A stretch of DNA of 58,847 bases, taken from Candidatus Berkelbacteria bacterium (lineage in GTDB: Bacteria > Patescibacteriota > UBA1384 > XYA2-FULL-43-10 > 1-14-0-10-43-13). This document shows, in pieces, positions 3,728 through 35,979 of the stretch; within the stretch, counting starts at the first letter, position 1, and every line of letters starts with the position of its first letter. The notes under the pieces are model-generated. The model saw nothing but the letters and a program-made list of their open reading frames with translations. It searched no databases and was not told where the DNA came from. The stretch is from contig JAPLVL010000060.1 of the NCBI GenBank assembly GCA_026397135.1, positions 8,458 to 67,304 of the forward strand, written 5' to 3'. Made by a program: the position numbers and the translations under genes.

Positions 3728-3958
3728 TTATAATTTTGCTCGGTGGGGAAAAATCTGACGCCCAAGCCGATCAATATATGATTTCGATTGATCCTTATAT
3801 AGGATTTGTGCCACGCCCTTATGAAAATAACTTGGTGGGTATGCGTTTTCGGACGACTCCAGCTTCTTCATGTGTCCGGATTTATTGAGCAAGAAATGAT
3901 CAGTATTGATCCCGACAACTGCCACCCCCTCTGAGAACCAGTTGGCATCTTGAAATCG
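3728..3958 (-). pseudogene. WG-repeat coding remnant in frame behind the TAG stop of 3959..5167
   Basis: Same frame as 3959..5167 (3959-3728=231). Hand translation directly after TAG (3961-3959): RFQDANWFSEGVAVVGINTDHFLLNKSGHMKK...YFHKGVAQILYKDQSKSYIDRLGRQIF, i.e. two more WG-type repeats with no further stop for 76 codons. Confidence 0.6.
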
Positions 3959-5167
3959 CTAATATCGCTTCGAAAAACTGCCGAGGTTTTTAATATCATA
4001 CGGATCACCAACTAGTGCAATTCCTTCTGCAAAATGAGAGGACATCCCAAACTTTTTGCCAGGAAAAGCAAATGTGCCATCGGGACGTAAATACTTCCTC
4101 TCGCCTGCGCTCTTTTCAGATTTTATCTGGACATTTGCTAAGCCATCAGAAAAATCCTCTCCCGACTCAAAAGGACCACCGACGATTTCAGCTTTCTGAT
4201 TGATATAATAATGATCCCGGCTGTTACCTCCTGCTAGGGTGGAAATATGATAGATGCCCTCCGGGCTTGGTGCTTTGCTACTGTAGAGAGATTTACCTTC
4301 CACAAAGTGCGGCAGGGGCACTTGTTTTTTCTCCCCACTCTTGCTGACGATATACAAATGGCCAACAGGCGACGAACCGCCATTGCTTGTTGTATCGATC
4401 CCCAGGCAGTAACCATTGTAAAAATTTGTCAGACGAACTAGTGTGTTTTCGTAATGTACTACCCCTCCCTCCTGATTGATCAGACGATATTTGCCATCCT
4501 TGAAATTTTTGACCCAGGCAACCCCTTCGGAGAACAATTCCCCTCTGTCATCGGCAGCACCGATGGTGGTGACCTTGCCCACAGAGTCAATCATTACCAA
4601 GCACTCACCCGACTGATTCTGTCTTTTCAAAATTAGCGGAAAATCCGGCATGCTGGTGGTCACATTGGCAAAATCTAGACCGCTTGGATAGAAATAGTGG
4701 ACATCAGGCTCCTCCATTGCGGGGAAGGCGTTCGTGCCGTCTTTCCGAATAATCTTGCAGGTATAATATTTATCCACCACATCTGTCTGGACCAGCGCCA
4801 AGCCATCTCGAAATTCAGTTACTCGAGAAAATGGTCCGGCTATCAACTCTTCTGTTTTGTTGTTTAGGAGATAAACGTCATAAGTGAGTCCTGCTGGCAC
4901 TCGCCTCATTCGATAACCCCAGACAATCCCGTCCGACTCTGGAACATAGACAAAATCAAGATCAAATTTCTCGGACAAGCGGTTTCTGGCCTGATATTTG
5001 AATCTATTTTCCAAAAAATATGGGATTTCGGTCCAATCGATCAGCTTCTCCTGCAGATCTTTCTGAGCTGCAATCAAATCTCCCACAGCAAAATTATCCG
5101 GCTTGCATAACTTTTTGCCCTGTTCGACCAATTCTTGAATAAATTTTGTTGCTTCAATACATGACAT
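3959..5167 (-). CDS. NCH-array paralog, class W (N-terminal Cys-helix module + WG-containing/KWG-type repeats)
   Basis: 402-aa ORF. N-terminus MSCIEATKFIQELV. Repeats FRDGLALVQ, FSEGVAWVKNFKDGKYRLINQEGG, FSDGLANVQ, FAEGIALVG. Confidence 0.85.
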   Translation of the reverse strand: MSCIEATKFIQELVEQGKKLCKPDNFAVGDLIAAQKDLQEKLIDWTEIPYFLENRFKYQARNRLSEKFDLDFVYVPESDGIVWGYRMRRVPAGLTYDVYLLNNKTEELIAGPFSRVTEFRDGLALVQTDVVDKYYTCKIIRKDGTNAFPAMEEPDVHYFYPSGLDFANVTTSMPDFPLILKRQNQSGECLVMIDSVGKVTTIGAADDRGELFSEGVAWVKNFKDGKYRLINQEGGVVHYENTLVRLTNFYNGYCLGIDTTSNGGSSPVGHLYIVSKSGEKKQVPLPHFVEGKSLYSSKAPSPEGIYHISTLAGGNSRDHYYINQKAEIVGGPFESGEDFSDGLANVQIKSEKSAGERKYLRPDGTFAFPGKKFGMSSHFAEGIALVGDPYDIKNLGSFSKRY

Positions 5168-5267
5168 GAATTAGTTTTTAGTTGGTAGTTTTGTACCGGT
5201 TTCGTATTTAGTGGTTATGTAATTCTTAATTCTTACTTTAGGCTTTATAACTTGCTCACTTGTTCAC

Positions 5268-6728: not shown

Positions 6729-6894
6729 AAATGCTTTTTCGTTATCCTAATATCGAATCGACCGAAATGACCGAATAATACCTTCGATTCGATTGATGAG
6801 GTATCTTAATTCTTAATCCTTACTGCTTAATTCTTGATGAACTTTATAACCTGCTTACTTGTTTACCTACTCACCTGTTTACTTACTCACTGAT
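6729..6894 (-). repeat. Conserved intergenic module, copy a (full length)
   Basis: Coding-strand order: octamer array, GGTTATAAAGTTCATCAAG, AATTAAG/GATTAAG short repeats, ATACCTCATCAA, stem-loop (plus-strand arms atcgaatcga 6752-6761 and tcgattcgat 6784-6793), ATTAGGATAAC, then ATG 6728. A 57-nt core is identical in copies a, c and e. Confidence 0.85.
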
Positions 6895-9391: not shown

Positions 9392-9435
9392 TTTTTCTAC
9401 ATAATATCGTCGATCGACGATATTATGTAGAAAAA
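9392..9435. repeat. Perfect 44-bp palindrome centred on CGATCG
   Basis: tttttctacataatatcgtcga|tcgacgatattatgtagaaaaa read directly. 65 nt upstream of plus-strand ATG 9501. Related imperfect copy at 10068-10106. Confidence 0.9.
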
Positions 9436-9500: not shown

Positions 9501-9773
9501 ATGCCTCAAGATGTTCTAGTTTTTTTTCCTACAGGTTTAAATACGCCTGAGGCAGAGGTTTTGTCATCAACTATTCAGTCCCTTCTAGATAAAAAAAAAC
9601 ATGTTACAATTTTAACATGCAGGGGTGGAAAAAATTACTATTGTGCAAAAAATATCTTCTCAATAAATTTAATTTGCATTTTATGTAAAAAAAAAAGAAA
9701 TACAACAGCCAATCTAGCTTTGTTCGTAAACCTGATTGATTCACCTGTATCAGATTTAGTAATTTCAATGTAG
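9501..9773 (+). pseudogene. Possible N-terminal gene fragment on the opposite strand (function unknown)
   Basis: MPQDVLVFFPTGLNTPEAEVLSSTIQSLLDKKKHVTILTCRGG... looks protein-like for about 60 aa, then degenerates. No Shine-Dalgarno site. Its 3' part overlaps the tail of 9638..9973. Confidence 0.2.
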
Positions 9774-9973
9774 CCACTTCTTTTCAGTCTGAAAAATAGC
9801 TTGCTCAAATTTGAGACCGACAATATATTATTATAATTGTCGTTGCCACGCATAATTTTGTATGCTTCTTGGCGGTCAAATGCGCGAAAAATATTCTCTG
9901 GTACTCCTAGAAAGCAATCTAAAATTTCCACAAGAACATCTTTGACTTTCGATTTGATCTCCTTCTTATCCAT
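9638..9973 (-). CDS. Small winged-helix-like DNA-binding protein (hypothetical)
   Basis: ATG 9973 is preceded by AAGGGAGGAG then 4 nt; the ORF-track GTG 10003 extension is rejected. The segment LSKLFFRLKRSGYIEITKSDTGESIRFTNKA resembles a wHTH recognition helix plus wing. The hydrophobic tail VVFLFFLHKMQIKF may be read-through. Confidence 0.5.
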   Translation of the reverse strand: MDKKEIKSKVKDVLVEILDCFLGVPENIFRAFDRQEAYKIMRGNDNYNNILSVSNLSKLFFRLKRSGYIEITKSDTGESIRFTNKARLAVVFLFFLHKMQIKFIEKIFFAQ

Positions 9974-10067
9974 CTCACTCCTCCCTTTCTTCTGAAAGTC
10001 CACTTTTCAATAATCTACTTTTTAAGTATTCACTTTCTTAATATTCAATCTGTTAATTATTTTTAAA

Positions 10068-10106
10068 TTCTACACTTTTTCGTCGATCGACGATATTTTG
10101 TAGAAG
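10068..10106. repeat. Imperfect palindrome centred on CGATCG (relative of 9392-9435)
   Basis: ttctacactttttcgtcga|tcgacgatattttgtagaa. The outer TTCTACA/TGTAGAA and the core CGTCGATCGACG pair; the middle 5 nt do not. 94 nt upstream of ATG 9973. Confidence 0.8.
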
Positions 10107-13366: not shown

Positions 13367-13516
13367 AAATTTTAATTCATTAACCTAATATCGAATCGAC
13401 CGAAATGACCTAGTAATGCCTTCGATTTGATTTGTTCGATTGATTCGGTATTCGGTTGATCTTGTTTCTTGGTTCTAACCCTTGCTGCTTAATTCTTGAT
13501 GAACTTTATAACCTGC
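13367..13516 (-). repeat. Conserved intergenic module, copy b
   Basis: Contains atcgaatcga (13390-13399) and the mismatched partner tcgatttgat (13422-13431), cttgatgaactttataacctgctcac, and 3 octamer units from 13513. Confidence 0.8.
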
Positions 13517-14860
13517 TCACCTACTTACCTGACTCACTGTTTTGCTTATTCCTTCCCAATCCGGCTCATCTTCGACATCTACGAGGCGGCCGATTTCATC
13601 ACCAGTATCGTACACCCGGAGCAAGATCGCGCCGCCACTCTTGCTCTCTGCAATTTTCTCTCGGACTTGCTCTATGGTTGTATTTGCCCTCTCAACAATG
13701 ATCACCCCGCCGGTCATATTTTCTCCGAAAATATCTGGTAGACTCCGAAGTAGCAAGATTCCTTTGTACATTCCTCTGGTTATGTTGGTAGAGTAAAACA
13801 TCCCAGCTGCAGATTCTATAAACCCATCGTCATTTAGAAGCTCGCTTACCACAACCCTACTATGCACTACCGGAATGTGACTCGGAGTCGAGTATTGATT
13901 GAGGTAATTGATTTGTCTTCCACCGAAAGTAAGCTCCTCGACTTGCAAATGCCAAACTCTCATCTCGTTTGTCGAATGGTTCACTACCGGTGGCAGGACA
14001 CGGTCGAAGATGACGTTGCCACTTCTGAAACTGGAAATTTGCTCCGTCTTCCTGGTCACAGCCAGGCCACCGCTCATCTCGGAGGCAAAAGCAAATGACG
14101 CTTCACCAACATGGAGATAGCCACCTCTCAAATGATCCCCAGCAAAGACACCGGCCGTCTCTGCAAAAATTTTGCCGCCAGACATTCGATTGCCAAGTCG
14201 CGAATCAGCCTCACTGACCACGATCACTCCGCCTCGCATCTTGTAGCCAAGCGAATTGCCGGCTCTTTCCAGAACAATTTTGCCGCGCGTGAGGTAAGCC
14301 CCGAAAAAATCATTCAAATCAGGCGGCGGCTCCGACAAGGTGACGACACTATCCTTTTCCATCAATTTATCCAGGAAAATAGCGTTCAGAAAGATTGGCA
14401 GATACAGAGTCTCATTCTCCTCCGATAGCCCAGCAAGCTTTTCGATCCGATTTCTGGCAGCAAGATATTCCGGACTCTTCATGAAATTGAGAAAACTTTG
14501 ATATTGTCGCGTACCGAATTGATTGCGCTTCTTGGTGAAATCGGCAAAAATTGTTTGAAATTCCAAATATCCGTCGTCTTCAAATTCCCTAATTTCGTCA
14601 TCTTCGTAATCTCCTATGCCGGCAATATATTTCCTAAGAATCCAACCGAATCTCTCAATTCTATTCGGCTCGAGGAAATGCAGGATGAAATTGTTCACAT
14701 CAACATTTTTCAAATCAAGCTTCTCAATCTCCGTGCTCATACTCTCTTGGAGCTGCCTCAGTTTTTTGACATTTTTCTGATCATAAAATTGATCAAACTC
14801 CTTCTGACTTCTCTGTAAATTCAAAATACCACTGGTCAGACCTTGGCAATCCAGAGTCAC
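13517..14860 (-). CDS. NCH-array paralog, class G (N-terminal Cys-helix module + GXGXG beta-helix)
   Basis: Start moved to GTG 14860 (GGAGGG at 14874-14869, 8-nt spacer), giving MTLDCQGLTSGILNLQRSQKEFD. GXGXG run GNSLGYKMRGGVIVVSEADSRLGNRMSGGKIFAETAGVFAGDHLRGGYLHVG. Confidence 0.85.
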   Translation of the reverse strand: MTLDCQGLTSGILNLQRSQKEFDQFYDQKNVKKLRQLQESMSTEIEKLDLKNVDVNNFILHFLEPNRIERFGWILRKYIAGIGDYEDDEIREFEDDGYLEFQTIFADFTKKRNQFGTRQYQSFLNFMKSPEYLAARNRIEKLAGLSEENETLYLPIFLNAIFLDKLMEKDSVVTLSEPPPDLNDFFGAYLTRGKIVLERAGNSLGYKMRGGVIVVSEADSRLGNRMSGGKIFAETAGVFAGDHLRGGYLHVGEASFAFASEMSGGLAVTRKTEQISSFRSGNVIFDRVLPPVVNHSTNEMRVWHLQVEELTFGGRQINYLNQYSTPSHIPVVHSRVVVSELLNDDGFIESAAGMFYSTNITRGMYKGILLLRSLPDIFGENMTGGVIIVERANTTIEQVREKIAESKSGGAILLRVYDTGDEIGRLVDVEDEPDWEGISKTVSQVSR

Positions 14861-14918
14861 TTCAGCTTCCCTCCAATCAATCTTCGCTTCACTGTTAGAT
14901 GTAAATCCTCGACCTTTT

Positions 14919-21031: not shown

Positions 21032-21205
21032 AATATTTATTTTGTTAGCCAAATATCGAATCGACCGAATAATACCTTCGATTCGATTTATTCGGTTGAT
21101 GAGGTATCTTAATTCTTAATCCTTACTGCTTAATTCTTGATGAACTTTATAACCTGCTCACCTGTTTACTGACTCACCGATTCACTGACTTACTGATTCA
21201 CTGAT
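21032..21205 (-). repeat. Conserved intergenic module, copy c (full length)
   Basis: Stem-loop arms atcgaatcga 21055-21064 and tcgattcgat 21078-21087 (13-nt loop). Core gaggtatcttaattcttaatccttactgcttaattcttgatgaactttataacctgc is identical to copies a and e. Octamer array 21154-21209. Confidence 0.85.
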
Positions 21206-21209: not shown

Positions 21210-22606
21210 TGTTCACCTTCCACATCGACCAGTCTCGACTTGTCAAGATCAGTCTTGTCCCAGATGCGTAGTAGGATCAGACCGCCAGACTTGGTCTTTG
21301 AAATTTTGGGCCTCACTTCGTCTATAGATACCTTTGGATCGTCAATTATAATAGCTCCACCTGTCATCCCCTCACCAATATCATGATCCGGTATTCTCTT
21401 GAGCACCAAAATTCCGCCTTTCATTGCCTCAACATGATTGTATAGCTTCGGAACATGAGACGGAATTGTATTAAACCCGACTCCACTTTCCAGAAAATTG
21501 GTTAATTGGTCGTTATTTGTGATCACATTTGCAGTGCCGCCTGTACCGTTGAAATAATGAGAACTAGTGGATATATAGGTAGCTATCCCACGAAATTTTG
21601 CCACGGAATAAGAATGATTGGTTTTGTAATGAATGTTAATGTCGGCCTCCTCTCCAGCCAGAAAGGTAGCCAGGCTTGAGATAGAACCCTTGGCAATATC
21701 TTTCGCTTCTTCGCCGATATAGGCACCGTTGGTTGCCCTGGATCCGAGTTTGTCTCCACCGTGATGGACGACAACGACTCCACCTTTTCCTTCAACTCCT
21801 GGTGAATCTCCGGATCTCTCCGCTACTGCGACTCCACCTTTGATTCTGGCGGCGAAGCAATCACCTGCTTTGCCCACACTAATCTTACCACCCATTACGC
21901 CTTCGCCTGCCCATTCTTCAACCTCATCAACCCAGAGCTCCCCGCCCCGAAGGTAGTTCCCAGCACCGCGACCAAGTTTTCTTGATATAATCTTACCATG
22001 ACTTAGCCCGACACCGAAAAAGATGAAAAGACCCATCGGAACTGAATAATTTCTGATATCAAGCGTCTGGTCCTCCCCCAAGAACTCCTCGAGAAAGCAA
22101 CTATTTAGGGCAGCCAGTAATTCGCGAATACCGATTTGATTCACTAAACTATTTTCACTTCTGCCTGAGTGAAAAATTGAAATTTCAGTAATAATCATCT
22201 TCAGATTTTCGTGAATTTCCGGATTTCTGATCAGTCTGTCTAGAAATTTGCCATAGCTCTCTGACTTCAATTTGACCGAACTCCTCTCTCCTTTTAGGAA
22301 TGGGGATAAATATCTTTTTCGATAGTGATCAATAATATAGACCAGAAATTCGTTAAGTGAACTAGAAAAATTCATCGCTTCATGGAGAATTTCGCGGAAA
22401 TGAAAAAGGTTTGTGTCAGAGAGAATTGATTCGATGAAAAGCGACCCCGGTGAGATTTGCTCCAAAACTTCAGTCAATTTCAGGTCAATTCTTTCCTTGA
22501 TTGGCCGAATTTTCGACATGGTCTTGGGCGAATCGTCAAAATCTCTGGCCATATCAGCCAGCTGTGCAATATCTTCTAAAATTGTTAGACAATTAAGCAT
22601 GGTCAT
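21206..22606 (-). CDS. NCH-array paralog, class G (N-terminal Cys-helix module + GXGXG beta-helix)
   Basis: 466-aa ORF. MTMLNCLTILEDIAQLADMARDFDD. GAGNYLRGGELWVDEVEEWAGEGVMGGKISVGKAGDCFAARIKGGVAVA, GEGMTGGAIIIDD, KSGGLILLRI. Confidence 0.85.
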   Translation of the reverse strand: MTMLNCLTILEDIAQLADMARDFDDSPKTMSKIRPIKERIDLKLTEVLEQISPGSLFIESILSDTNLFHFREILHEAMNFSSSLNEFLVYIIDHYRKRYLSPFLKGERSSVKLKSESYGKFLDRLIRNPEIHENLKMIITEISIFHSGRSENSLVNQIGIRELLAALNSCFLEEFLGEDQTLDIRNYSVPMGLFIFFGVGLSHGKIISRKLGRGAGNYLRGGELWVDEVEEWAGEGVMGGKISVGKAGDCFAARIKGGVAVAERSGDSPGVEGKGGVVVVHHGGDKLGSRATNGAYIGEEAKDIAKGSISSLATFLAGEEADINIHYKTNHSYSVAKFRGIATYISTSSHYFNGTGGTANVITNNDQLTNFLESGVGFNTIPSHVPKLYNHVEAMKGGILVLKRIPDHDIGEGMTGGAIIIDDPKVSIDEVRPKISKTKSGGLILLRIWDKTDLDKSRLVDVEGEQ

Positions 22607-22782
22607 TGTTTGAAAATCGGTCCAGTTCGACTATTAATTATTTGGATTACTTTTATTTTATCATCTTACTCACCCGACGGATATATAACGGATCGAGATA
22701 ACAAATTGTGACATTTGATAATATTAAATTCATTATAGCTTGATGAACCTGACGAACTTGATAACTTGATGAACTTTATGGC

Positions 22783-22846
22783 CTGCTCACCTGTTTACCT
22801 GTTTACTTACTCACCGATTCACTGATTTACTGACTTACTGACTTAC
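22783..22846 (-). repeat. Tandem octamer array (8 units)
   Basis: ctgctcac ctgtttac ctgtttac ttactcac cgattcac tgatttac tgacttac tgacttac. Encodes the ...KSKSVSQ* tail of 22827..23969. Preceded by cttgatgaactttatggcc. Confidence 0.9.
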
Positions 22847-23969
22847 TTTTCCCATACACTTCAATATTTTTGTAGCCACAGCCAAAGGCGATCATATCAT
22901 CTGCGCCAACCTCGATCGTACGGACATTGTCTTCGACTATAAATTTATGGACAATTTCGCCGGTAGCCATCTTAATCACGGAAATTTCGGAGGTTTTGTC
23001 CTTGTCGCTGTACGGTTTGCTACTCACGATCAAATTTCCAAATTCTCGATCTATCGCCAGGGCGAAGGCGCGAGCTCGATCCATCACGGTTGACTCTTGG
23101 CCTGTTTCAAGATCATATGAGTAGAGCTCGGCTCTGCGAAAATGCGAGGTATAGATTTTCCTCTTGCCATCAAAGGCATACGATCTGATCGCTTCCAAAA
23201 CCGTCTTGACCTTGCCCGTCTCACAGTCCCAGATTACTAAATGTTTTTCACAATCGAAGCCGAGTAGATATTTACCGTCGTCAGAAAATTCCATTGTTTT
23301 GGGATACCCCATTTCCTCCGGCACATCCTCGAAATTCTGCCAGTCGGCAAGAATTTTCCGATTATATCCACAAGAAGCCATCCGATTGTATTCCTCGTCA
23401 TACGCAAATGCCCCGCTGCAGCCCAGATCTTCCTTTTTGAGCAGCCTATTTTCGTCAAGGTCATATACCGCCATCTTCCTCTGTACCCTTTTGTCGACAG
23501 TGTTGCTATACCGATCGACCAAGATGAAGAGTAAATTCCAATCTGGTCTGAAAACAATATTAAAATCGCCATCAAAGAAATATCCTAGTCTCTGATCTCC
23601 CGTCATATTCGTCGGCGCCTCAAGGTAGCCCGTCACCTCGCCCGTTTTCAGGTCGCAAAATTTCAGCTTGTCTTTGGCTGCCAATGTGACTATACTCCGG
23701 CCATCTGGCGTAATCTTCATCGAAAACCGCATTTTATCACTGAGTTGATTGAGTTCCCAGATTGTTTCAATATCTTTGGTGACCGAGGAAATTTGGCCAA
23801 AATATTTCCAATAAATTGATTCCTTGGCTTCGCTGACTTTTTCGGCCAACGCCACCTTCTTCTCCCTGGCGATTTGGACAGCTGAAGCATTTATTACATC
23901 CGAAAATTCCCTCTCCATTTGGGAGAGATCGTTTACAATTTGGCTAATTTTCTTACAATCAAACGGCAT
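22827..23969 (-). CDS. NCH-array paralog, class P (N-terminal Cys-helix module + WD40/PD40-like beta-propeller)
   Basis: 380-aa ORF. MPFDCKKISQIVNDLSQMEREF. Blades ITPDGRSIVTL, FSDDGKYLLGFDCEKHLVIWD. Confidence 0.85.
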   Translation of the reverse strand: MPFDCKKISQIVNDLSQMEREFSDVINASAVQIAREKKVALAEKVSEAKESIYWKYFGQISSVTKDIETIWELNQLSDKMRFSMKITPDGRSIVTLAAKDKLKFCDLKTGEVTGYLEAPTNMTGDQRLGYFFDGDFNIVFRPDWNLLFILVDRYSNTVDKRVQRKMAVYDLDENRLLKKEDLGCSGAFAYDEEYNRMASCGYNRKILADWQNFEDVPEEMGYPKTMEFSDDGKYLLGFDCEKHLVIWDCETGKVKTVLEAIRSYAFDGKRKIYTSHFRRAELYSYDLETGQESTVMDRARAFALAIDREFGNLIVSSKPYSDKDKTSEISVIKMATGEIVHKFIVEDNVRTIEVGADDMIAFGCGYKNIEVYGKSKSVSQ

Positions 23970-24156
23970 AAATTCTTGATTCGTTAACCTAATATCGAAT
24001 CGACCGAGTAATACCTTCGATTCGATTGATGAGGTATCTTAATTCTTAATCCTTACTGCTTAATTCTTGATGAACTTTATGGCCTGCTCACCTGTTTACC
24101 TGTTTACTGACTCACCGATTCACTGACTTACTGACTCATCTGCTCACCTGTTCGCC
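23970..24156 (-). repeat. Conserved intergenic module, copy d (full length)
   Basis: Stem-loop arms 23994-24003 and 24017-24026. Core as in copies a/c/e except tatgg for tataa. Octamer array 24084-24155. Confidence 0.85.
24084..24155 (-). repeat. Tandem octamer array (9 units)
   Basis: ctgctcac ctgtttac ctgtttac tgactcac cgattcac tgacttac tgactcat ctgctcac ctgttcgc. Begins 1 nt after the stop of 24157..25425. Confidence 0.9.
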
Positions 24157-25425
24157 TCACTTTTTACCGAAGAACCGCTGCCCCCACTCGTTGATCTGGC
24201 CGAACCACTTACCAGGACCGGCAGCATCACAAACATCGACCAAATTATCGTACCGTAGATGATTCGCCGAAATCATTGGTTTCAGATACCGCTGCTCGGA
24301 AATTTCATTGCCACGATGATTAATCAGGTGCCAGCCCCCTTCTCCACTAACGAAGAAGATACCATTGCGGAAATTCTTTATCTCACGATAATTCTTGTTA
24401 TCAATTCTATTACCAGATTTGTCTATCAGAAACCATTTATCACCCTGCTTCACACCAGACACGCCATGATCGAAGAACCCAGGGGTATAATCAAACGGTC
24501 CGGCCAGCTCCGCCCCGGTCTTGTCGATCAGGAAATATTTTTCGTCCAGATAAATTCCTTTCTTGACGAAGGCGCGATCTTCGTGAAACTCAAACGGCTC
24601 GACCACATCCCTCTTCTCGAAGAGAACTTCCCCAGCAGCGTCATAGAGCTGCCAGTACTTCCTCTTGCCGTCTCCAACCCAACTCACGCCATCGGAAAAA
24701 GCTTGGCATTCAAGTGAGAAATTCGAGGGAGTAACTATCTCCTCGTTTGATTGGTCAATCAAACGAATCAGATGGGTAGATGCATCTGAAAAATAGACCC
24801 AGGCCCGACCCTCCCGCATCATCGTCAATGGTTCGTATGCAACTCTCCCCAACTTGAAATTAATCCCTCCGGTGTCATCGAGAAAATATTTTCGACTACC
24901 ACTACGAGGCATCTTCTCATTTACAATGATTAAGCCGGTATTTTCGAAATTTTCCTCGTCAACACCGGAGACATATATCATTTTTTCAGTTACACCATTT
25001 TGGTTGATTAGGCGAAGAAGAGTAGAATTGCTATTTCCAATCGGTTCGCGATCTGACTGTTCCCAAATCCAGGCCGTACCCTGATAAAATGGTGTATGAC
25101 GAAATTTGCCCAAATCTTCTGAAAACTTTGTGCCGGTCCGATCGATAATCCAGAGATGAGATCCGTCAGCATCGTTATATCTAGCCCAGCTCAAGTCTCC
25201 ATGAAACGGCTCGACAAACTGAAATCCCTCCCTTTTTGCAATTTCATCGCGAAGATAATTCTCAAAGGGATCATTGATTTTGCTCATTGTCTCAAGCCAG
25301 CTTTCCTGAAATTTTGATTTGTGAACCTTGCAATCAGAAATCTTGACCAAATCAAAATCACGATCAAAATTATCAATCAAATCCCGAAAACTCATTATCT
25401 TGTCGCTGACTTCTCTGCAATTCAT
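24157..25425 (-). CDS. NCH-array paralog, class W (N-terminal Cys-helix module + WG-containing repeats)
   Basis: 422-aa ORF. MNCREVSDKIMSFRDLIDNFDRDFD. Repeats FYQGTAWIW, MREGRAWVY, FSDGVSWVG, FHEDRAFVK, FDHGVSGVK, FRNGIFFVS. Confidence 0.85.
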   Translation of the reverse strand: MNCREVSDKIMSFRDLIDNFDRDFDLVKISDCKVHKSKFQESWLETMSKINDPFENYLRDEIAKREGFQFVEPFHGDLSWARYNDADGSHLWIIDRTGTKFSEDLGKFRHTPFYQGTAWIWEQSDREPIGNSNSTLLRLINQNGVTEKMIYVSGVDEENFENTGLIIVNEKMPRSGSRKYFLDDTGGINFKLGRVAYEPLTMMREGRAWVYFSDASTHLIRLIDQSNEEIVTPSNFSLECQAFSDGVSWVGDGKRKYWQLYDAAGEVLFEKRDVVEPFEFHEDRAFVKKGIYLDEKYFLIDKTGAELAGPFDYTPGFFDHGVSGVKQGDKWFLIDKSGNRIDNKNYREIKNFRNGIFFVSGEGGWHLINHRGNEISEQRYLKPMISANHLRYDNLVDVCDAAGPGKWFGQINEWGQRFFGKK

Positions 25426-25449
25426 ACTGCTTTCTTTTGACTTTATAAC

Positions 25450-25513
25450 TGACTCACTGATTTACTTATTTACTTATTTACTTGCTCACTTACTTACTCA
25501 CTTACTCACCTGC
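25450..25513 (-). repeat. Tandem octamer array (8 units, 3' units degenerate)
   Basis: tgactcac tgatttac ttatttac ttatttac ttgctcac ttacttac tcacttac tcacctgc. Contains the stop of 25502..26689. Confidence 0.85.
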
Positions 25514-26689
25514 TAACTTCCCTTTTCCATTGTTCAGTCTCACATAGCGACCATCGGGTGAAATGAACCAAACCGAGCGGTCAGGCGTCAAGAAAACCTC
25601 TTTTGGGGTAATCCGCAGATTGAGAGGAGTTTTGAAAACAGCTTTACCGTCTTCGACCCGAATTATTCTGAAATTACTGTCATAATCAATGGCAAAGAGA
25701 AATTGACCAGTCGGATCAACGCTGAGTCGATCAGTTTCGAGACCGGAAGCGATCATCACTTTCTCACTACTATCAATATTAAATTCACTAATCCTACCTC
25801 CACGGGCATAGAAAATCAGGTTTGGCTCCGCCTGACTGGTAGCAAAGGCTGTTACATCATTGGCAATAGTTTTCTCGAAACAGCGTCCCTCAATATTCCA
25901 CAAACACAAGCTATGAGTATATGAGGTCGAGACAACATATTTTCCATCTCTCGTAACCTCAAATTGCCTTGTCCCGTCCGGCATCATGTTGAGTTTTTTG
26001 GCCGATACTCCCTTTTCAGAGATTGGCCCACCAGAAAAACTATCAGCGCTTCGGTCCAAACTTTCAAGTAAGTCAGCAACAAGCTCGCGCTCCATGTTCA
26101 GCGCTATAACCAAAGCTTTGTTTCCCGGAATTGGACGAACAGAATGATTCTCCTCAAACGGAAGTCTCGGCGTGCCGAGTATTTCGCCGTCCTTTATCCC
26201 AATGACGGAAATTCTCTTGTCGCTACCATAATCATCGGTTTGAATTATCATCAAGGTCTCATCATCGAGACAAACCATCTCCCTCACCATGTCGTTTTTG
26301 AATGTACGAACCAATTGGTAGGCATTGGTAATTATCGGCGAACTCTGGGGCATGTCAATCAGTCTTGTCTCTGGCTCCCCTCCACCCTCGCCAACAAAGC
26401 GAATGGCTAGTTTTTCCCGATTCAAGGCATAAATCAGAAAATTTCGATCCGGTGTAACGGCATACAGGCTCGGATCATCAGCCTCGGTATCCTGAGGATG
26501 GATCGAACCGGACTCCTGCTCCTTCAATCCAAGCCAGAAAATTTGCCTGTAAATATGCTCAATATTTTCCGTTATTTTGGCTATTTCGTCGAAGCCGTCC
26601 TTGTACTGACCTCCAGAAACAAGCCGATCAAAATCGGATATAGACTTGCACAAATTCTTGATATTTTCTGAAATTTCTCTGCAATTCAT
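25502..26689 (-). CDS. NCH-array paralog, class P (N-terminal Cys-helix module + WD40/PD40-like beta-propeller)
   Basis: 395-aa ORF. MNCREISENIKNLCKSISDFD. Blades VTRDGKYVVSTSYTHSLCLWNI, VDPTGQFLFAIDYDSNFRIIRV, ISPDGRYVRL. Confidence 0.85.
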   Translation of the reverse strand: MNCREISENIKNLCKSISDFDRLVSGGQYKDGFDEIAKITENIEHIYRQIFWLGLKEQESGSIHPQDTEADDPSLYAVTPDRNFLIYALNREKLAIRFVGEGGGEPETRLIDMPQSSPIITNAYQLVRTFKNDMVREMVCLDDETLMIIQTDDYGSDKRISVIGIKDGEILGTPRLPFEENHSVRPIPGNKALVIALNMERELVADLLESLDRSADSFSGGPISEKGVSAKKLNMMPDGTRQFEVTRDGKYVVSTSYTHSLCLWNIEGRCFEKTIANDVTAFATSQAEPNLIFYARGGRISEFNIDSSEKVMIASGLETDRLSVDPTGQFLFAIDYDSNFRIIRVEDGKAVFKTPLNLRITPKEVFLTPDRSVWFISPDGRYVRLNNGKGKLAGE

Positions 26690-26713
26690 ACTGCTTTCTT
26701 TTGACTTTATAAC

Positions 26714-26777
26714 TGACTCACTGATTTACTGATTTACTTATTAACTTATTAACTTGCTCACTTCTTTACCTGCTCAC
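26714..26777 (-). repeat. Tandem octamer array (8 units)
   Basis: tgactcac tgatttac tgatttac ttattaac ttattaac ttgctcac ttctttac ctgctcac. Contains the stop of 26758..28203. Confidence 0.85.
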
Positions 26778-28203
26778 TATTATATTTCACTTCCAAAAGC
26801 TTCGTCTTCTTCGGATTATCAGGGTCACGCTCTCGGATGAAGATTAGACCGCCTTCCCGCTCTGGACAAAGTCTCGCCCGAGCGTCTTCCTGTGTCAGAC
26901 CGGGCACTTCCAAAATCAGAATTCCGCCAGTCATGCCCTCGCCAATCAGAGACTTCGGCATTATTTTGCTAACACGGATACCATGATCCATTTGATATGT
27001 TGGATTGGCCAAGAGCCCATCATTGCTCGCAATCATAACGAGTCTCGGCATTTTCTTCTCCAGATGTTTCCTGAATTCACGCTCCGAAGTGACAAATCTG
27101 GCCTGGCTTGCTCTCGGAGAAGATAATTCGAAATATCTCCCGACACTTTCGTCATAGAAATAAATATTTCGCCACTCACCTCCCATGATTGTGTTTGGAC
27201 CATATTCACCGAGAAGGATCTGAGCCATGGCTCCCGTATCTGTGCGAATATTCGAACTATGAGCAGTCAATAGACTCTCACCGACTTTGTTTAGTCGCAA
27301 ACTCTTGATATAGAGAGTCGGCGTCTTGCCCCTTAGCCCGAGAATTTTGACATTGGCATCAGTATATCGAATATAGAAGGTTGCACCGGAGTCGGAAATT
27401 TCAATGTTACTCCGAGCCGTACCAATTTCAAACACTACCTTGCTCTCGGCCATAGTTCCGATTGCCCGTTCTGATTGATTGTCAGAGAGCAGTTCCAGGT
27501 CATAAATTTTGATTCGGCCTTTGATCGCTGCATATCCGGTATCTGGCCCAGCTCCAATCGCTTCGATGCTACCGCCGTTTAATTTGTAACCAAAAGCGAA
27601 GTCAGACTCATTGAAAATAATGTTTTCCTTGGCATTCAATCCGATCCCGAAATACGCTGGCGCCTTGGTATCAGCGAAAAGCGATTTGCCCTTTTCTATA
27701 TATTTCTCTATGAAGAGTGTGTGAAAAATAGAAATTAGCTTTTCACCCATATCAACAAAAGGAGATTGGCCAAGTAACGATTCCCAAATCAGTCGGGAGA
27801 CTCGGCCACTCTCCAAGCGAGAAGCAAAATCCTTGTAAGCCCTCGTCGTTAATTTGCCGGGGACAAAATCTTTGCCATTTAGAATTTCTCTGATTTTGTC
27901 ACGGTAGAGGAGCTCCACATCGTCACTTGTCATTTTCTTCAGCATCACTGATTCTATTTCATCACAAACCTTCATGATCTCACCCCAGGTCTCGTCGTCC
28001 TCTAGTACCTTGATAAATTGGCGCCCCAAATAGATGAATTCGCCTTCTATTTCGGCAACATCTTGATTTATCTCCGATTTCTTGTCGAAAAGTCTCCTCA
28101 CTTTGTCCGTGCTGTTCACCTCACCAAAAATAGAGTTAAAGAATTTAACCTTTTTCTCTAATCCCTGAATTTTCTGGCTGATTTTTTGGCAATGATCCGG
28201 CAT
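26758..28203 (-). CDS. NCH-array paralog, class G (N-terminal Cys-helix module + GXGXG beta-helix)
   Basis: 481-aa ORF. MPDHCQKISQKIQGLEKKVKFFN. AFGYKLNGGSIEAIGAGPDTGYAAIKGRIKIY, GEGMTGGILILEV, REGGLIFIRE. Confidence 0.85.
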   Translation of the reverse strand: MPDHCQKISQKIQGLEKKVKFFNSIFGEVNSTDKVRRLFDKKSEINQDVAEIEGEFIYLGRQFIKVLEDDETWGEIMKVCDEIESVMLKKMTSDDVELLYRDKIREILNGKDFVPGKLTTRAYKDFASRLESGRVSRLIWESLLGQSPFVDMGEKLISIFHTLFIEKYIEKGKSLFADTKAPAYFGIGLNAKENIIFNESDFAFGYKLNGGSIEAIGAGPDTGYAAIKGRIKIYDLELLSDNQSERAIGTMAESKVVFEIGTARSNIEISDSGATFYIRYTDANVKILGLRGKTPTLYIKSLRLNKVGESLLTAHSSNIRTDTGAMAQILLGEYGPNTIMGGEWRNIYFYDESVGRYFELSSPRASQARFVTSEREFRKHLEKKMPRLVMIASNDGLLANPTYQMDHGIRVSKIMPKSLIGEGMTGGILILEVPGLTQEDARARLCPEREGGLIFIRERDPDNPKKTKLLEVKYNSEQVKK

Positions 28204-28331
28204 AAATCCCTTGATTTGTTAACCTAATATCGAATCGACCGAAACGACCTAATAATGCCTTTGATTCGATTGATGAGGTATCTTAATTCTTAATCCTTAC
28301 TGCTTAATTCTTGATGAACTTTATAACCTGC
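28204..28331 (-). repeat. Conserved intergenic module, copy e
   Basis: Stem-loop arms atcgaatcga 28229-28238 and ttgattcgat 28261-28270 (one mismatch). The 57-nt core is identical to copies a and c. 3 octamer units from 28328. Confidence 0.85.
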
Positions 28332-29552
28332 TTACTTACTCACCTGCACACTATTAATTCTTGCTGACTGTCCGTAAACGATGATTTGGCCATTGGAGAG
28401 TCCCACAATAACTTTGCCATCGATACCAAAACTGAAATGATCTATCTTGATTACATCATTTGCCGAAGTGACATTCGCAACATTCTGATTCAAAAGGTTT
28501 GTGAGATCAGCGATCATATGTCTGGGGGTACCATAGCGTTTGTGCTCAATTATCTCGATTTTGAAATCCGCAGTTATCGCGGCCAGAAGCTCGCCATCCG
28601 GACTAGCCGCCAAGTGTAAATACTGCTCATCTGACTGAACATCTGCGCATTCATAACCACGGCAATAATCTCCATCGCCTCGATCCATTTTGTAAATTTG
28701 GATCCGGCCCAAAAACTCAGTATTTCTGTTGGTGATGAAGACAAATGTATCGTCCTCCGGCAAGAGAGCCCAATCCACCACCTTGCTGCCCGGTTCGGCA
28801 ATCATCTCATGAGTATTGAAGTCAAAGATCAGCAATTTCATATCCAATGTATCAACATATACATATTTGGCTTCTCTAGAGAGTTTGATTTTGTCAAAAC
28901 CAGCATATTGAAGTTGCTCTGGGATATCGAATTCACGCCTGTCCCGCCTACCATAGAGCCAGAGATTCGAAGTCATTTCATTGACCGAGCGGACGCCGAC
29001 AAATTCAGTGTTATAGTCAGAGGCCGCAAATACCCTCGGCACTTCGTCTCCAAATTGATTCAATTTCAAATTATCTCCGCCAACACAGTCCAAGACATAT
29101 TTATTGGGTCCTTTGCCACCTTGGAAAATCTCGGCCACTCGGACGATAGCGCCACCGTCTCGCGGTACCAAGAAGCCGTCAAATAGAAACTTTTCGCCGT
29201 TGCAAACTAGCGGCAGATCAGTAGCTGTACCATCAGACAAATCAATAATTTTGAGCATCGAAGAAGACTCTTCGAAGACGAGCGATTTGCCGTCGTCAGA
29301 GATCTCTATTCTTTTATCCCTCGGATTTGACCAGCGCTCAACCTTGTGTTCGAATTCATAGAGTGGTTTGTAGAGCGCGAAACGCAAAGATTCTCTGAGT
29401 TTCTTTAGGTCTAGATTGATCGCCCCCGAGAAATAGCGGCAGGACTGAACATGGAATTTCTCCGGCTTCATGTAGTCGTCAAAAGAGCGCAGATTCATAC
29501 GAATTCTACGAAGTGTCTTGATCATCTCAGTGCAATTTGGCGCCTCCTCCAA
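28332..29552 (-). CDS. NCH-array paralog, class P (N-terminal Cys-helix module + WD40/PD40-like beta-propeller)
   Basis: 406-aa ORF from TTG 29552 (GGAGGG 3 nt upstream). MEEAPNCTEMIKTLRRIRMNLRSFDD. Blades ASPDGELLAAI, FGIDGKVIVGLSNGQIIVYG. Confidence 0.85.
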   Translation of the reverse strand: MEEAPNCTEMIKTLRRIRMNLRSFDDYMKPEKFHVQSCRYFSGAINLDLKKLRESLRFALYKPLYEFEHKVERWSNPRDKRIEISDDGKSLVFEESSSMLKIIDLSDGTATDLPLVCNGEKFLFDGFLVPRDGGAIVRVAEIFQGGKGPNKYVLDCVGGDNLKLNQFGDEVPRVFAASDYNTEFVGVRSVNEMTSNLWLYGRRDRREFDIPEQLQYAGFDKIKLSREAKYVYVDTLDMKLLIFDFNTHEMIAEPGSKVVDWALLPEDDTFVFITNRNTEFLGRIQIYKMDRGDGDYCRGYECADVQSDEQYLHLAASPDGELLAAITADFKIEIIEHKRYGTPRHMIADLTNLLNQNVANVTSANDVIKIDHFSFGIDGKVIVGLSNGQIIVYGQSARINSVQVSK

Positions 29553-29963: not shown

Positions 29964-31100
29964 TCATTTTATTTTCCCAAATACCGAATATCCCTGTGCG
30001 CTTCCGGTTACGACGAAACCTGCCTTCGAAATGAGGATCGATTCAGTCACGCCGAAGGCCCCGCCCTTTAGCTCCCCAACCTTCCCGCCTGTCTCAGTAT
30101 CAAGGATTACGGCTCCACCGGTTGAGAGTGAACCGGCCAGCAAAAATTTGCCGCTCGGGTCACAGCGAAGTGCACTCGTCAGAGCAATATCGTCAGAGAG
30201 TCGACGATCTTCTAGGGTTTTAATGTCAAAGACTCGAATGTCTGCGGCCGGACAGTAGAAAATTTCAGCCGGCTTGACAGGATTGACCGCAAATTCCCGA
30301 CTCATTATCGGCAGTCGGCTTACTAGTTTCTTCTGTTCGAAGTCCCAGAGATACATCTTGAAATTTTCATGAAGAGAGACCAAATATCTGCCACCGGGCA
30401 AAAACTCCAGTTTTCGTGTCCCTGACTTGATCTCCTCGCCATCATGGGCAAAGGGATCGATATTGGCCGGATGATTTGAGAAGGTAAACTGACCAACTTC
30501 GCCACTGGTCGAGCCGGCGACCATTAGATCTGCTCTGTCGGGATTGAGCCTGAAGATTTGAAGATCCTGCACAATCTCAATCGAGTAACCACTGCCATAC
30601 TCTTTGCCAAAATTTTGCTGATACAAATGCAGAGAGCGGTAATTGCTCATATTTGTGCCGACGATTGCAACCAGATATCTCTTGCCTGCTTGATCAACGA
30701 AAGGAAGTACTGGCGCCTTTAAAACATTCTGATTGAAATTCGGGCCGGAACCCAAATTGATTTCAGCGGATTCAGATTGAGACTGATTCTTGTCTAGTCC
30801 AATGTTTTCGATAACGATCCTACTACCATAACTGTTGCATCTAATTAATTGTTTCCCATCATCACTTAGGGATATAGCGATTTCATCATTATCGAGCGTC
30901 ATACTCTGTTGCTCTTGATATTTGCACTCAAAATCACGCCAATAGCAAAAAGCAAAGGCAGGTGAAATTTCTTTCAGCATTTTTTTCTGCAAATTGAAGA
31001 GCTCTGTCGCTTTGTTTCTCTCAAGTAATTTATCAAAATCAGCCTTCGTTTCCCTCGAGGATTTGATCAAATCAGTTAATTTTTGGCAATCATATTTCAT
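29964..31100 (-). CDS. NCH-array paralog, class P (N-terminal Cys-helix module + WD40/PD40-like beta-propeller)
   Basis: Start moved to ATG 31100, giving MKYDCQKLTDLIKSSRETKADFD. The first 27 nt are identical to the 5' end of 32300..33379. Blades FLPGGRYLVSLHENFKMYLWD, CDPSGKFLLAGS. Confidence 0.85.
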   Translation of the reverse strand: MKYDCQKLTDLIKSSRETKADFDKLLERNKATELFNLQKKMLKEISPAFAFCYWRDFECKYQEQQSMTLDNDEIAISLSDDGKQLIRCNSYGSRIVIENIGLDKNQSQSESAEINLGSGPNFNQNVLKAPVLPFVDQAGKRYLVAIVGTNMSNYRSLHLYQQNFGKEYGSGYSIEIVQDLQIFRLNPDRADLMVAGSTSGEVGQFTFSNHPANIDPFAHDGEEIKSGTRKLEFLPGGRYLVSLHENFKMYLWDFEQKKLVSRLPIMSREFAVNPVKPAEIFYCPAADIRVFDIKTLEDRRLSDDIALTSALRCDPSGKFLLAGSLSTGGAVILDTETGGKVGELKGGAFGVTESILISKAGFVVTGSAQGYSVFGKIK

Positions 31101-31158
31101 AAATTCTTGATTTGTTAAACTAATATCGAATCGACCGAAATGACCGAATAATGCTTTT
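31101..31158 (-). repeat. Conserved intergenic module, copy f (promoter-distal half missing)
   Basis: aaattcttgatttgttaaactaatatcgaatcgaccgaaatgaccgaataatgc. Only one stem-loop arm remains, and the module abuts the stop of 31159..32313. Confidence 0.7.
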
Positions 31159-32313
31159 TTATTCTTCCGCGCTAAAAACCCTGACTCTGCCATCGGCGCA
31201 GCCGCAAAATATTTTTCCGGCGGCGTATGATATTTTCATAACTTTTGTTTCTGGTGTCCCGTTGTAAAACTTACTCAATCGGCCAGTCACTGCATCAAAG
31301 ACAGCACCATTTCCCAACTCATCTGCCAAATATGCTTTGTCCGTCGCCGGGTCAAAACAGAAATGCGTCGGCAAAAACCCTTCCGGAATTTTCATGACCG
31401 GTCGTACTTCATAGAGTGCATTCAAGCTGCAGATCCAACGCTCTTTTTCATCTCCGGCCAGAATTATGGCACTTTTTTGATCGTTATAAAATTCTATCCC
31501 GTAGAATTGAAAATGTTCGTTTGGATGGTCGCATTGCAAGTCTTCAAGAAAACCGTCTTTTGCTCGATTCCAAATCTTGAGCTGATGATTTGTGTGCAGA
31601 GTGAAGACATAGTCGCGTAGGACCTCAATCTTCAACATTTTGCTGCGAACAAAGCCGAGCCTCCGATTCATCTCAGCCTGACCGGAGACATTATCCCAGA
31701 TAACACTGAGGCCGTTTTTATCCGATTCGAATATAATTGCTTTTTCTTTCGGCAAGAGATTGTAAGCCCCCTTAGCTTTAGCCAGTTTCTTGTGAAAATT
31801 AAAGTTTTCAACAATATGCCCCAAAGTCGCCGTTTCAAATGTAAATATACGAGATAGAAATGTGTCAGAGGAGGTTGCGAAAACCTGCAAGGAGTCACCG
31901 GTCTCATCGAAGCCAAAATCTCCTCGGACTGAATATTCAATCGGGAGAAAAATTTGTGACAATGTGCTCCGATCCGAAACGGACGTAATAGTGATAATGG
32001 AAGAAACATTAGTAATTTGAGACAAGACTGCCAATTTTTCTCCATCTGGCGAGACTGCCATCGGGAAATGATATTGAGCAAATTCCAGTTTCTTCCCACC
32101 TCTATCATAAACTTCAGTATCGGCAATCATAATCTTGTGAAATTTTTCCAGCTCAATGCTCTCAATAATCTTTTCAATTTTTGATTTGGGAATATATGCA
32201 GACTTGGGCTGCTCGACCCGAACCGACTGATCGAAATCCCTCGAAATAGTCAAAATCTCCCCGATTTTCCTGGATATGGAATTACAATTTTCTTTTTGTC
32301 TATTCACTGTCAT
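31159..32313 (-). CDS. NCH-array paralog, class P (N-terminal Cys-helix module + WD40/PD40-like beta-propeller)
   Basis: Start moved to ATG 32313 (MTVNRQKENCNSISRKIGEILTISRDFD), a 14-nt overlap with the upstream gene. Blades VSPDGEKLAVL, GCADGRVRVFS. Confidence 0.8.
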   Translation of the reverse strand: MTVNRQKENCNSISRKIGEILTISRDFDQSVRVEQPKSAYIPKSKIEKIIESIELEKFHKIMIADTEVYDRGGKKLEFAQYHFPMAVSPDGEKLAVLSQITNVSSIITITSVSDRSTLSQIFLPIEYSVRGDFGFDETGDSLQVFATSSDTFLSRIFTFETATLGHIVENFNFHKKLAKAKGAYNLLPKEKAIIFESDKNGLSVIWDNVSGQAEMNRRLGFVRSKMLKIEVLRDYVFTLHTNHQLKIWNRAKDGFLEDLQCDHPNEHFQFYGIEFYNDQKSAIILAGDEKERWICSLNALYEVRPVMKIPEGFLPTHFCFDPATDKAYLADELGNGAVFDAVTGRLSKFYNGTPETKVMKISYAAGKIFCGCADGRVRVFSAEE

Positions 32314-33379
32314 TTTTGCGATAAATCTTAATTCTCCCCCCAGAGTCGCCAGCGATAATCGATTCTGATCTCTCGTCCCAGGCAATATTGGTAATTGCCA
32401 CGCCGTCATTCCGGAATGTTTTCTTCGCCTTGCGACTTTCCAGATCGTAAATATTGATCTCACCATTTCGGTCGCCAGTACAGATGAACTTTGATTTTTC
32501 GTCGATACAGAGAGCTATCACCGGATTCTTGAGCAGAATTATTTCGGGCTCTCTGTGTAAGTCCATTGTATCATAGAGACGAATTCCTTTCTCCCCCGCC
32601 ACCACCATATTTTGTGTATTTGTTGTCAGAGCAGTGATCTTGTCTTCGTATTTATACGAAACTTCTGTTACGATCGGCCTATTAACAAACATCCCCATTT
32701 CCCCAATATCATGGATCTTGATTCTGTTCTGACTTGCAACAACAAACTTATCATCTGGTAAGAAGCTGATCCAGTGGATTGGTATCCCGATGTTACCAAC
32801 CAGCCGACATGGTGCACCATTTGAATAGAAATATCCAAGCTCCCCCTTGTCTGTCCCAGCCAGGAAAGTTTGGCGCTTCGGGTCTTCTGGCATTGCCAGC
32901 GCCACCTTGCCATAAGGATTTTTGAACCTCAAAGTATCTCTGAAACCATTGTTGACTCGATCAGAAAGATTAATTGTCCCCTCGCAGGTTGCGAAAAGCA
33001 TTTGTCTGGAAGTAGAATCTATGGCGATTTGATTGAGCGGAAACTCAACCGAAAAATCACTGATTATCTCTCCGCCAACATCACCGAGGCAGACATGGCT
33101 TCTATCGCAAAAGACAAAGAAATTGTTACCATCTTCAAAATCAGGTAGCGTGATTGAAACAATCTCTCCCATATTTGGAGCCAAAATTTCAGCTGTCTTC
33201 GCGTATCGAGCATAGGGATTGAGACTGTCCATTATCGGACTAATGATCAACTCAATATCAGCCACCACCTTTTTCTTGGCGGAAATATTTGAAATCAAGG
33301 AACCGTCTTGATCGAATTGCGATATCAATGGCACAGCTTGTCCCAAGGCCTCAGTTAATTTTTGGCAATCATATTTCAT
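32300..33379 (-). CDS. NCH-array paralog, class P (N-terminal Cys-helix module + WD40/PD40-like beta-propeller)
   Basis: 359-aa ORF. MKYDCQKLTEALGQAVPLISQFD. Blades TGDRNGEINIYDL, AGDSGGRIKIY. Confidence 0.85.
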   Translation of the reverse strand: MKYDCQKLTEALGQAVPLISQFDQDGSLISNISAKKKVVADIELIISPIMDSLNPYARYAKTAEILAPNMGEIVSITLPDFEDGNNFFVFCDRSHVCLGDVGGEIISDFSVEFPLNQIAIDSTSRQMLFATCEGTINLSDRVNNGFRDTLRFKNPYGKVALAMPEDPKRQTFLAGTDKGELGYFYSNGAPCRLVGNIGIPIHWISFLPDDKFVVASQNRIKIHDIGEMGMFVNRPIVTEVSYKYEDKITALTTNTQNMVVAGEKGIRLYDTMDLHREPEIILLKNPVIALCIDEKSKFICTGDRNGEINIYDLESRKAKKTFRNDGVAITNIAWDERSESIIAGDSGGRIKIYRKNDSE

Positions 33380-33396
33380 AGAGTTAAACTAATTGC

Positions 33397-35817: not shown

Positions 35818-35979
35818 AAGTTCTTGATTTATTGACTTAGTATCGAATCGACCGAATCGACCGAATAATACCTTTGGTTCGATTTATTCGATTGATTCGA
35901 TTGATTCGGTATTCGGTTAGTCTAACTGGTTAATCCTTGCTTCTAGCTCTTTCAGACTTCTTTGGACTCTTTTGGACTT
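35818..35979 (-). repeat. Conserved intergenic module, copy g (divergent)
   Basis: tatcgaatcgaccgaatcgaccgaataatacctttggttcgatttattcgattgattcgattgattcggtattcgg: the same building blocks with extra cgaccgaa and gattgattc duplications. No clean octamer array. Confidence 0.65.

Follow-up and report, generated by a model that had tools for sequence, protein, structure and literature searches.

In a 58,847-nucleotide (nt) stretch of the genome of a Candidatus Berkelbacteria bacterium (GenBank assembly GCA_026397135.1, contig JAPLVL010000060.1, positions 8,458 to 67,304; hereafter the window), about 42 consecutive minus-strand genes encoding proteins of 240-510 amino acids (aa) form an array of paralogs, and two adjacent members carry an identical 56-nt block across their start codons. 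It appears that this block was recently copied between the two neighbours by short-tract homologous recombination, i.e. gene conversion, and a probability of roughly 0.6 is given to this reading. On this view the block is the part nearest the start in a short leader cassette of the spacer, composed of an octamer array, a TTATAAAGT box, a 22-nt leader and the first five codons. Within the window the cassette occurs exactly twice, in front of two members that stand side by side in the 42-gene co-directional array. The octamer arrays would supply the upstream homology and the conserved first codons of the family motif the downstream homology for such an exchange. Two otherwise anciently diverged genes would in this way have come to carry the same expression signals and the same first five residues, while the N-terminal module as a whole would not have been transferred. 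We infer the conversion mechanism, any direction of transfer and the role of the cassette as a promoter or leader.

The two copies of the block, at 25411..25466 and 26675..26730 on the minus strand, are the same at 56/56 nt and span positions -41..+15 of both the class W gene (24157..25425) and the class P gene (25502..26689), as the original prediction had stated. On the coding strand the block reads AGTAAATCAGTGAGTCAGTTATAAAGTCAAAAGAAAGCAGT followed by ATGAATTGCAGAGAA, where the second part is ATG AAT TGC AGA GAA; thus each copy holds 41 nt of leader and codons 1-5 (MNCRE), of a WG-repeat gene in the first copy and of a propeller-like gene in the second. Each 20-mer of the block is found at these two sites only in the window. 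Longer exact repeats exist elsewhere in the window, but no other exact repeat that extends over a start codon is as long as the 56-mer; the reason is that the conserved part of the short leader directly adjoins the ATG. The class W gene (minus strand, 422 aa) encodes an N-terminal Cys...F-D module and WG repeats (Pfam WG_beta_rep, E=3.9e-7), and is one of a cluster of 13 W genes, among which its top paralog is 27% identical. The class P gene (minus strand, 395 aa) encodes the same type of N-terminal module and a propeller-like body with a weak propeller match, which is linked to the propeller-like paralogs g31100, g23969, g29552 and g8028. A search of 5.8e9 proteins gave no close homolog of the W protein, and a search of the same 5.8 billion proteins with the P protein returned that protein alone. 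The W and P proteins can be aligned over residues 1-22 alone (11/22 identical), and the remainder of the two genes is unrelated, again as predicted. Almost all genes of the array begin with the motif M-x(1-4)-C-x2-[ILMF]-[ST], and F-D follows exactly 17 residues past the Cys.

The ends of the shared tract are abrupt. Counted from the ATG, identity between the W and P genes is 78% (21/27) at -68..-42, 100% at -41..+15, 55% (28/51) at +16..+66, 39% at +67..+150 and 30% at +151..+400, with a random-offset background of 26%; the step at +15 (56/56 vs 28/51) has a Fisher P=1.4e-9. Upstream, the W and P spacers are homologous over their full length, to the stop codon of the preceding gene (108 nt at 88%), and they differ chiefly by one octamer unit and a few unit variants. 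Codons 2-5 are the same in both genes, including the six-fold degenerate Arg AGA, and past codon 5 four of the six conserved residues differ in their codons (Ser AGC/TCA, Ile ATA/ATC, Ile ATT/ATA, Arg CGT/CGG). Between the W and P genes, the rest of the N-terminal module (Cys+3..Cys+21) is 54% identical at the nucleotide level; this places them tenth among 820 pairs but inside the range of the family (mean 37.5%, maximum 61%). The two modules are therefore anciently diverged, and the recent part comprises the leader and five codons only. Since the bodies have diverged and synonymous sites are saturated just beside the block, yet 56 of 56 nt are the same, a recent copy between the neighbouring spacers would be the best account.

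The source of the sequence is a metagenome assembly, and the de Bruijn graph branches at both ends of the block, so one copy might have been created by collapse or by a chimeric join through the repeat. The assembly graphs of two public runs (X1 and X2) of one freshwater study, both of which hold the identical stretch, were consulted. The graph of run X1 has the block as a 56-nt unitig of its own, with a depth of 16.7, about 2.3 times that of its flanking unitigs (6.8-7.4), which overlap it by exactly 30 nt (k-1), and the unitig of the P gene (25437-26704) has a depth of 7.1, the same as its neighbours. The graph of run X2 breaks at the same positions and shows zero differences. The block has double depth, and its four flanks could otherwise be paired in one way only, which would turn the P unit into a circle; the block is therefore a genuine two-copy repeat. 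Both genes are also intact and carry the family motif at their starts. An assembly artefact, which the original prediction had named as one point on which its claim might fail, is thus largely refuted and highly improbable, the two-copy depth and the k-1 overlaps being consistent in both samples.

A second identity noted in the original prediction is likewise present and slightly longer than claimed: 31072..31101 and 33351..33380 on the minus strand are the same at 30/30 nt, and cover -1..+29 (MKYDCQKLT) at the starts of the genes at 29964..31100 and 32300..33379, respectively. The flanks on either side of this tract are unrelated, and past codon 9 the N-terminal modules of the two genes are at family background (44% nt identity, rank 185/820). 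The prediction had placed the breakpoint at the boundary of the N-terminal module and had proposed that a protein handle was swapped onto new binders or homogenised. These ideas are not supported: the step falls at codon 5/6 in the focal pair and at codon 9/10 in the MKYDCQKLT pair, and both breakpoints thus lie inside the module, which does not end before the F-D motif at codon 20-21 (Cys+17/18). Neither tract moves or homogenises a handle as a whole. Therefore, as the N-terminal module is diverged beyond the block and identity drops at codon 5/6, the copied unit appears to be the intergenic leader with five codons and not the handle.

Variants of a 17-mer, TTAATTTTTGGCAATCA, had also been offered as a sign of recombination. 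They do recur at gene 5' ends, with nine occurrences at up to 3 mismatches vs 0.7 expected, all of them at such ends. The first 12 codons of about 32 array genes are AT-rich, with a G+C content at third codon positions of 0.315 vs approximately 0.47; Leu at Cys+3 is TTA in 11/16 genes vs 7.5% of the Leu codons in the bodies (P=1.3e-9), and the motif prefers CAA for Gln (12/15) and AAA for Lys (14/14). The variants are the conserved D-C-Q-K-L(T) motif written in AT-rich 5' codons, and recombination is not needed for them; since the conserved motif and this codon choice explain them, they are not evidence of it.

Analogous tracts are observed in a related array. A profile built from positions 1-112 of the 13 W-class proteins picked up 137 proteins, of which about 120 come from outside the window. 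Almost all have a similar length, almost all are matched starting at their own N-terminus, and one is annotated as Candidatus Berkelbacteria. The assembly GCA_964543385.1 (sequences L019 and L022) holds a 29-kb stretch of 19 co-directional genes with the Cys motif, tightly packed, without long spacers and with no nucleotide similarity to the window. Two adjacent duplicates in it share 83/84 nt from the ATG (L019:13491-13574 / 14813-14896), with the same codons at 26/27 positions in the tract vs 80/175 conserved residues elsewhere (Fisher P=1.6e-7); outside the tract synonymous sites are nearly saturated. Their upstream sequences differ, their proteins are 43% identical overall, and within this repeat an independent Logan assembly is broken on both sides. 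Neighbours with unrelated bodies in the same array have 26-27-nt exact starts, which include a private CAG codon. Six consecutive genes at L022:14059-21325 (merged 21687-28953), of different sizes and with partly unrelated bodies, start with ATGAA(C/T/A)TGCCA(A/G)GAAATAACA (M-N/K-C-Q-E-I-T), and neighbours among them have private synonymous variants in common. Motif similarity in GCA_964543385.1 is 0.693 between adjacent vs 0.602 between non-adjacent genes (permutation P=0.0002). With the abrupt drop, the codon contrast and this pattern in a related genome, recent copying by gene conversion or other homologous recombination is the best explanation of the focal block.

A few further features of the related genomes may be recorded. 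The sequence that precedes the related array (L019:3-2722) has Pfam matches to CTD10, MC6 and DUF2326, domains known from conflict or defence systems. In a third genome with members of the family (L024), stop-rich tandem repeats of another unit sequence (GCTAACCT, GGTCGTAA) lie directly after each stop codon, at 790-860, 2286-2381, 3765-3837 and 5137-5239, and GGAGG sites stand before the starts; the type of feature is conserved and the sequence is not. The L022 sequence, from a metagenome-assembled genome (MAG), and L023, an independent contig of the same sample, have 13 differences, all in two patches of 58 and 33 nt (L022:11666-11723 and 14348-14380). Conversion was considered for these patches and rejected, as there is no paralogous donor and the MAG version adds a stop that splits a 423-aa gene; they are probably base errors of the MAG.

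Shared sequence in the window is mostly intergenic, and the phenomenon is mainly one of repeated spacer and leader elements. Comparison of the window with itself by blastn gave 32 matches, all in intergenic spacers, which reach at most 36 nt into the downstream gene; some run slightly into the 3' end of the upstream gene, and none lies inside a gene body. Even the closest paralogs have body proteins that are 25-35% identical only. The claim that nucleotide identity is restricted to 5' ends, across unrelated classes of body, is borne out. On the coding strand a spacer consists of the stop codon, an octamer array (GTGAGTAA, GTCAGTGA, ACAGGTAA and similar units), a (G)TTATAAAGT box and the ATG. 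In the short type, found in the window before the two focal genes only, the box lies 22 nt before the ATG. The spacer of the W gene (25426..25501, minus strand) has a stop-rich octamer array, the TTATAAAGT box and a 22-nt leader without a Shine-Dalgarno match and is homologous to 26690-26757; that of the P gene (26690..26757, minus strand) has the same architecture with one octamer unit different.

In the long type, heptamer repeats (ATTAAG), ATCGAAT repeats and a 10-bp inverted repeat with a variable loop stand between the box and the ATG. This type precedes seven genes (starts 6728, 13366, 21031, 23969, 28203, 31100 and 35817), the spacers, all on the minus strand, being 6729..6894, 21032..21205, 23970..24156 (directly downstream of the W gene), 28204..28331, an older and more diverged one at 13367..13516, a diverged one at 35818..35979 and a truncated one at 31101..31158 with the proximal part alone. 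Other leaders of the family are of the long type or the Shine-Dalgarno type or have overlapping starts, and conserved leaders precede 9 of the approximately 42 genes. Long-type spacers, that at 6729..6894 among them, share exact tracts of 75, 72, 63, 63, 62 and 55 nt, located at -131..-47 and purely non-coding, which link class G and class P genes up to 21.5 kb apart. Thus 6786-6860 equals 28263-28337 (75 nt), 6776-6847 equals 24009-24080 (72 nt), and 21096-21158, 28270-28332 and 6793-6855 are one 63-nt sequence. Among neighbouring spacers, 22765-22835 and 24066-24136 are 97% identical over 71 nt of the octamer and box part, with a private GGCC variant in both. The top three pairs by shared 10-mers of the octamer arrays are all at most 3 kb apart, and over all spacers distance and array similarity have no significant correlation (rho=-0.15, P=0.38).

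Several side observations concern these elements. The octamer arrays extend into coding 3' ends at 25502-25525 and 26758-26790, where the 5-8 codons at the end of the P gene (..KLAGE*) and of the GXGXG gene (..NSEQVKK*) consist of octamer units. The inverted repeat of the long type, ATCGAATCGA...TCGATTCGAT, is perfect over 8-10 bp at 23994-24026, 28229-28270 and 6752-6793; copies of a TCGGTC unit have been gained or lost in its loop, which is 13 to 26 nt long, and the z-scores of the DNA folds are -1.2 to -2.7. Two 38-nt palindromes, 87% identical to each other (9395-9432, perfect, and 10068-10105), flank an open reading frame (ORF) of 121 aa (9638..10003, no Pfam match) in the only 1-kb gap of the array. 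Copies of a GTCAT...-type hairpin element, 84-85% identical, lie in other spacers, at 40288-40360/51782-51854 and 44331-44379/48302-48349. A contig of 2,542 nt in run X1 (depth 6.0, matching window 26711-26754) carries a related octamer array in other surroundings, with GGAGAAACATG after it; such arrays are thus probably not confined to the gene array.

One alternative to recent copying is purifying selection only, in which the duplication is old and all 56 nt have been held by function, as a promoter, an operator, a translation-initiation region or a site for a regulator. In its favour, parts of the spacers are strongly conserved: a TTATAAAGT-like box is found in many of them, the surrounding 33 nt are exact in four of the long type, and four have the same 55-nt core. 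Moreover, selection at the nucleotide level favours AT-richness in the first 12 codons. However, it would demand that 41 non-coding and 4 synonymous sites stayed fixed while synonymous sites just past the block became saturated, and most members of the family have quite different leaders. The long leaders are also clearly more diverged in their start-proximal part (the last approximately 45 nt and the first codons) than in the distal core, the start-proximal 45 nt of four of them differing by substitutions and a 9-nt repeat-unit indel. Hence 56/56 identity is not what constraint normally maintains in this family. Further, the leader has no significant RNA structure and no Rfam match, and relatives of it were not found in the other genomes scanned. 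Overall, selection by itself seems an unlikely explanation.

Nevertheless, a number of results weigh against the recent copying favoured here. Strong functional constraint on the spacer elements exists too and could contribute: the four spacers of the long type with the identical 55-nt core are dispersed, and seven spacers contain ATAAAGTTCATCAAG, the core of the 33-nt stretch. As there are only two short-type copies, constraint and recency are inseparable column by column, and in the focal pair the argument from synonymous sites is carried by very few codons. The pairwise homoplasy index (PHI) test on six full-length long leaders was not significant (P=0.21), although 55% of the site pairs were incompatible. 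In the window, motif similarity is 0.499 between neighbours and 0.515 between non-neighbours (P=0.87). Searches with the two focal proteins and with the leader cores found no orthologous array against which homogenisation within the lineage could be read directly. Apart from these points, the Cys codons show no clustering along the array of the window.

Besides gene conversion, it may be considered that a cassette exchange, or module shuffling, took place with the two 56-nt direct repeats as its joints. Either the P body and its 3' array were inserted between the two block copies by a single crossover of an excised circle, or a duplicated leader and start acquired a different body. A unit of 1,264 nt (the rest of the spacer and the P body) is indeed bracketed by two identical direct repeats, and one N-terminal module is joined to at least three unrelated types of body, and therefore fusions occurred at some time. 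Joins would be tolerated in any frame, since the octamer arrays contain stops in every frame and extend into the final codons of upstream genes, and the spacers are mosaic, that of g22606 resembling the spacer of its neighbour in the first part only. Yet no donor copy of either body is present in the window and no body has a nucleotide match; the downstream joint falls at codon 5/6, inside the module and not at a domain boundary. The two runs, viewed as unitigs only, contain no joints or deletion variants, no recombinase was seen in the window, and the short spacer is without attC-like inverted repeats. Such an exchange at the focal genes is therefore rather unlikely.

A broader form of the same idea, which we hold to be doubtful, is that the conserved spacers are the joints of an integrase-free cassette array, in which homologous exchange deletes, duplicates, reorders and re-heads the bodies. 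If this were true, the stop arrays, being independent of frame, would provide a clean end for any body that came in, the direct repeats round the P gene would be a fresh footprint of exchange, and the bacterium, a member of the Candidate Phyla Radiation (CPR), would have a dedicated way to diversify a repertoire of binders with a common N-terminal module.

Returning to gene conversion, the function of the copied leader may be that of a promoter or leader module. A scan for sigma-70 and terminator consensus sequences called nothing in the short leader, the leader RNA folds are no better than shuffles (z = -0.7 to +1.1), no Rfam family matches the leaders, and the short block (25400-25520) contains no attC-like inverted repeat or hairpin. 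Scans of genome, metagenome and viral contigs with the long-leader core, and of viral contigs with the short-leader core, gave single chance matches of at most 25 nt or none. In both focal mRNAs the leader GUCAAAA (25432-25438 / 26696-26702) can pair with UUUUGAU of the D-F-D codons approximately 80 nt downstream (25361-25370 / 26625-26634); this 7-bp helix is in both minimum-energy folds, the energies of which are not significant. A spliced-leader interpretation of the GTRAGT units, which resemble 5' splice sites, was dropped, as the 4-nt ATGA overlaps and the Shine-Dalgarno sites are bacterial.

Repeated 5' regions on divergent genes have been found in several bacterial systems. The vsp, vlp, vpma and vsa genes of Mycoplasma have near-identical 5' non-coding regions and first codons with divergent remainders, and the 5' region is the target of recombination. 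A dedicated recombinase in these systems brings about site-specific inversion between oppositely oriented genes that depend on one promoter. In the window, by contrast, all of the about 42 genes lie on the minus strand, the repeats are direct, every gene is preceded by a leader of its own and a recombinase is not seen. Chromosomal integrons also form long co-directional arrays, with conserved repeats (attC, or Vibrio cholerae repeats) between unrelated ORFs. The repeats described here differ in that they include the start and first codons of a common protein motif, on genes that are paralogous at their 5' ends; no inverted repeat is present in 25400-25520, and no integrase-like ORF was noticed in the window.

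Among the closest known cases are the erp genes (ospE/ospF/elp) of Borrelia burgdorferi, with their 'upstream homology box', for which frequent recombination among members has been inferred (Marconi et al. 1996; review PMC10016077). There, the promoter/operator region and the start of the ORF are common to paralogs and the rest of the ORFs is independent in origin; judged by its sequence, the focal pair has this arrangement, i.e. an upstream region and first codons common to genes with unrelated ORFs. The shared coding part of erp is a lipoprotein signal peptide and sorting signal, whereas here it is 5-9 codons of a Cys-containing N-terminal module without a signal peptide, and no lipobox or lipoprotein signal was found, the Cys at residue 3-6 having no preceding hydrophobic signal sequence. 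The erp loci are on separate cp32 prophage plasmids, whereas one tandem chromosomal array of a CPR-type bacterium is concerned here, with spacers built of stop-rich short tandem repeats. The tandem lpl paralogs of Staphylococcus aureus, with rearrangements shown across more than ten genomes (Tsuru and Kobayashi 2008, PMC2568036), are similar in that homologous recombination takes place at a conserved nucleotide segment and in that the unit of evolution includes an intergenic region and is not the same as the ORF. However, the conserved segment of lpl is mid-ORF in every member, whereas here it is the spacer and first codons of some members only. The focal tract has the marks of gene conversion, being abrupt, with synonymous and non-coding sites the same inside and diverged outside, though in this pair such sites are few.

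A shared promoter or leader that is kept on unrelated ORFs by recombination is already well known from Borrelia erp, Mycoplasma vsp/vlp and S. aureus lpl. The block is thus most likely a familiar kind of concerted evolution and not a swap of protein modules, and the unsupported idea that whole N-terminal handles are moved onto new binders is corrected. It also defines candidate expression signals, i.e. leaders without a Shine-Dalgarno match and with the TTATAAAGT box, for the family. The array shows how a very large lineage-specific set of paralogs evolves at the DNA level in a CPR-type genome: nucleotide similarity between the bodies is lost, while the spacers and the first few codons stay or become alike, in some cases completely. 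With short tracts anchored at 5' ends in two independent genomes, recombination appears to be active in these small uncultured genomes.

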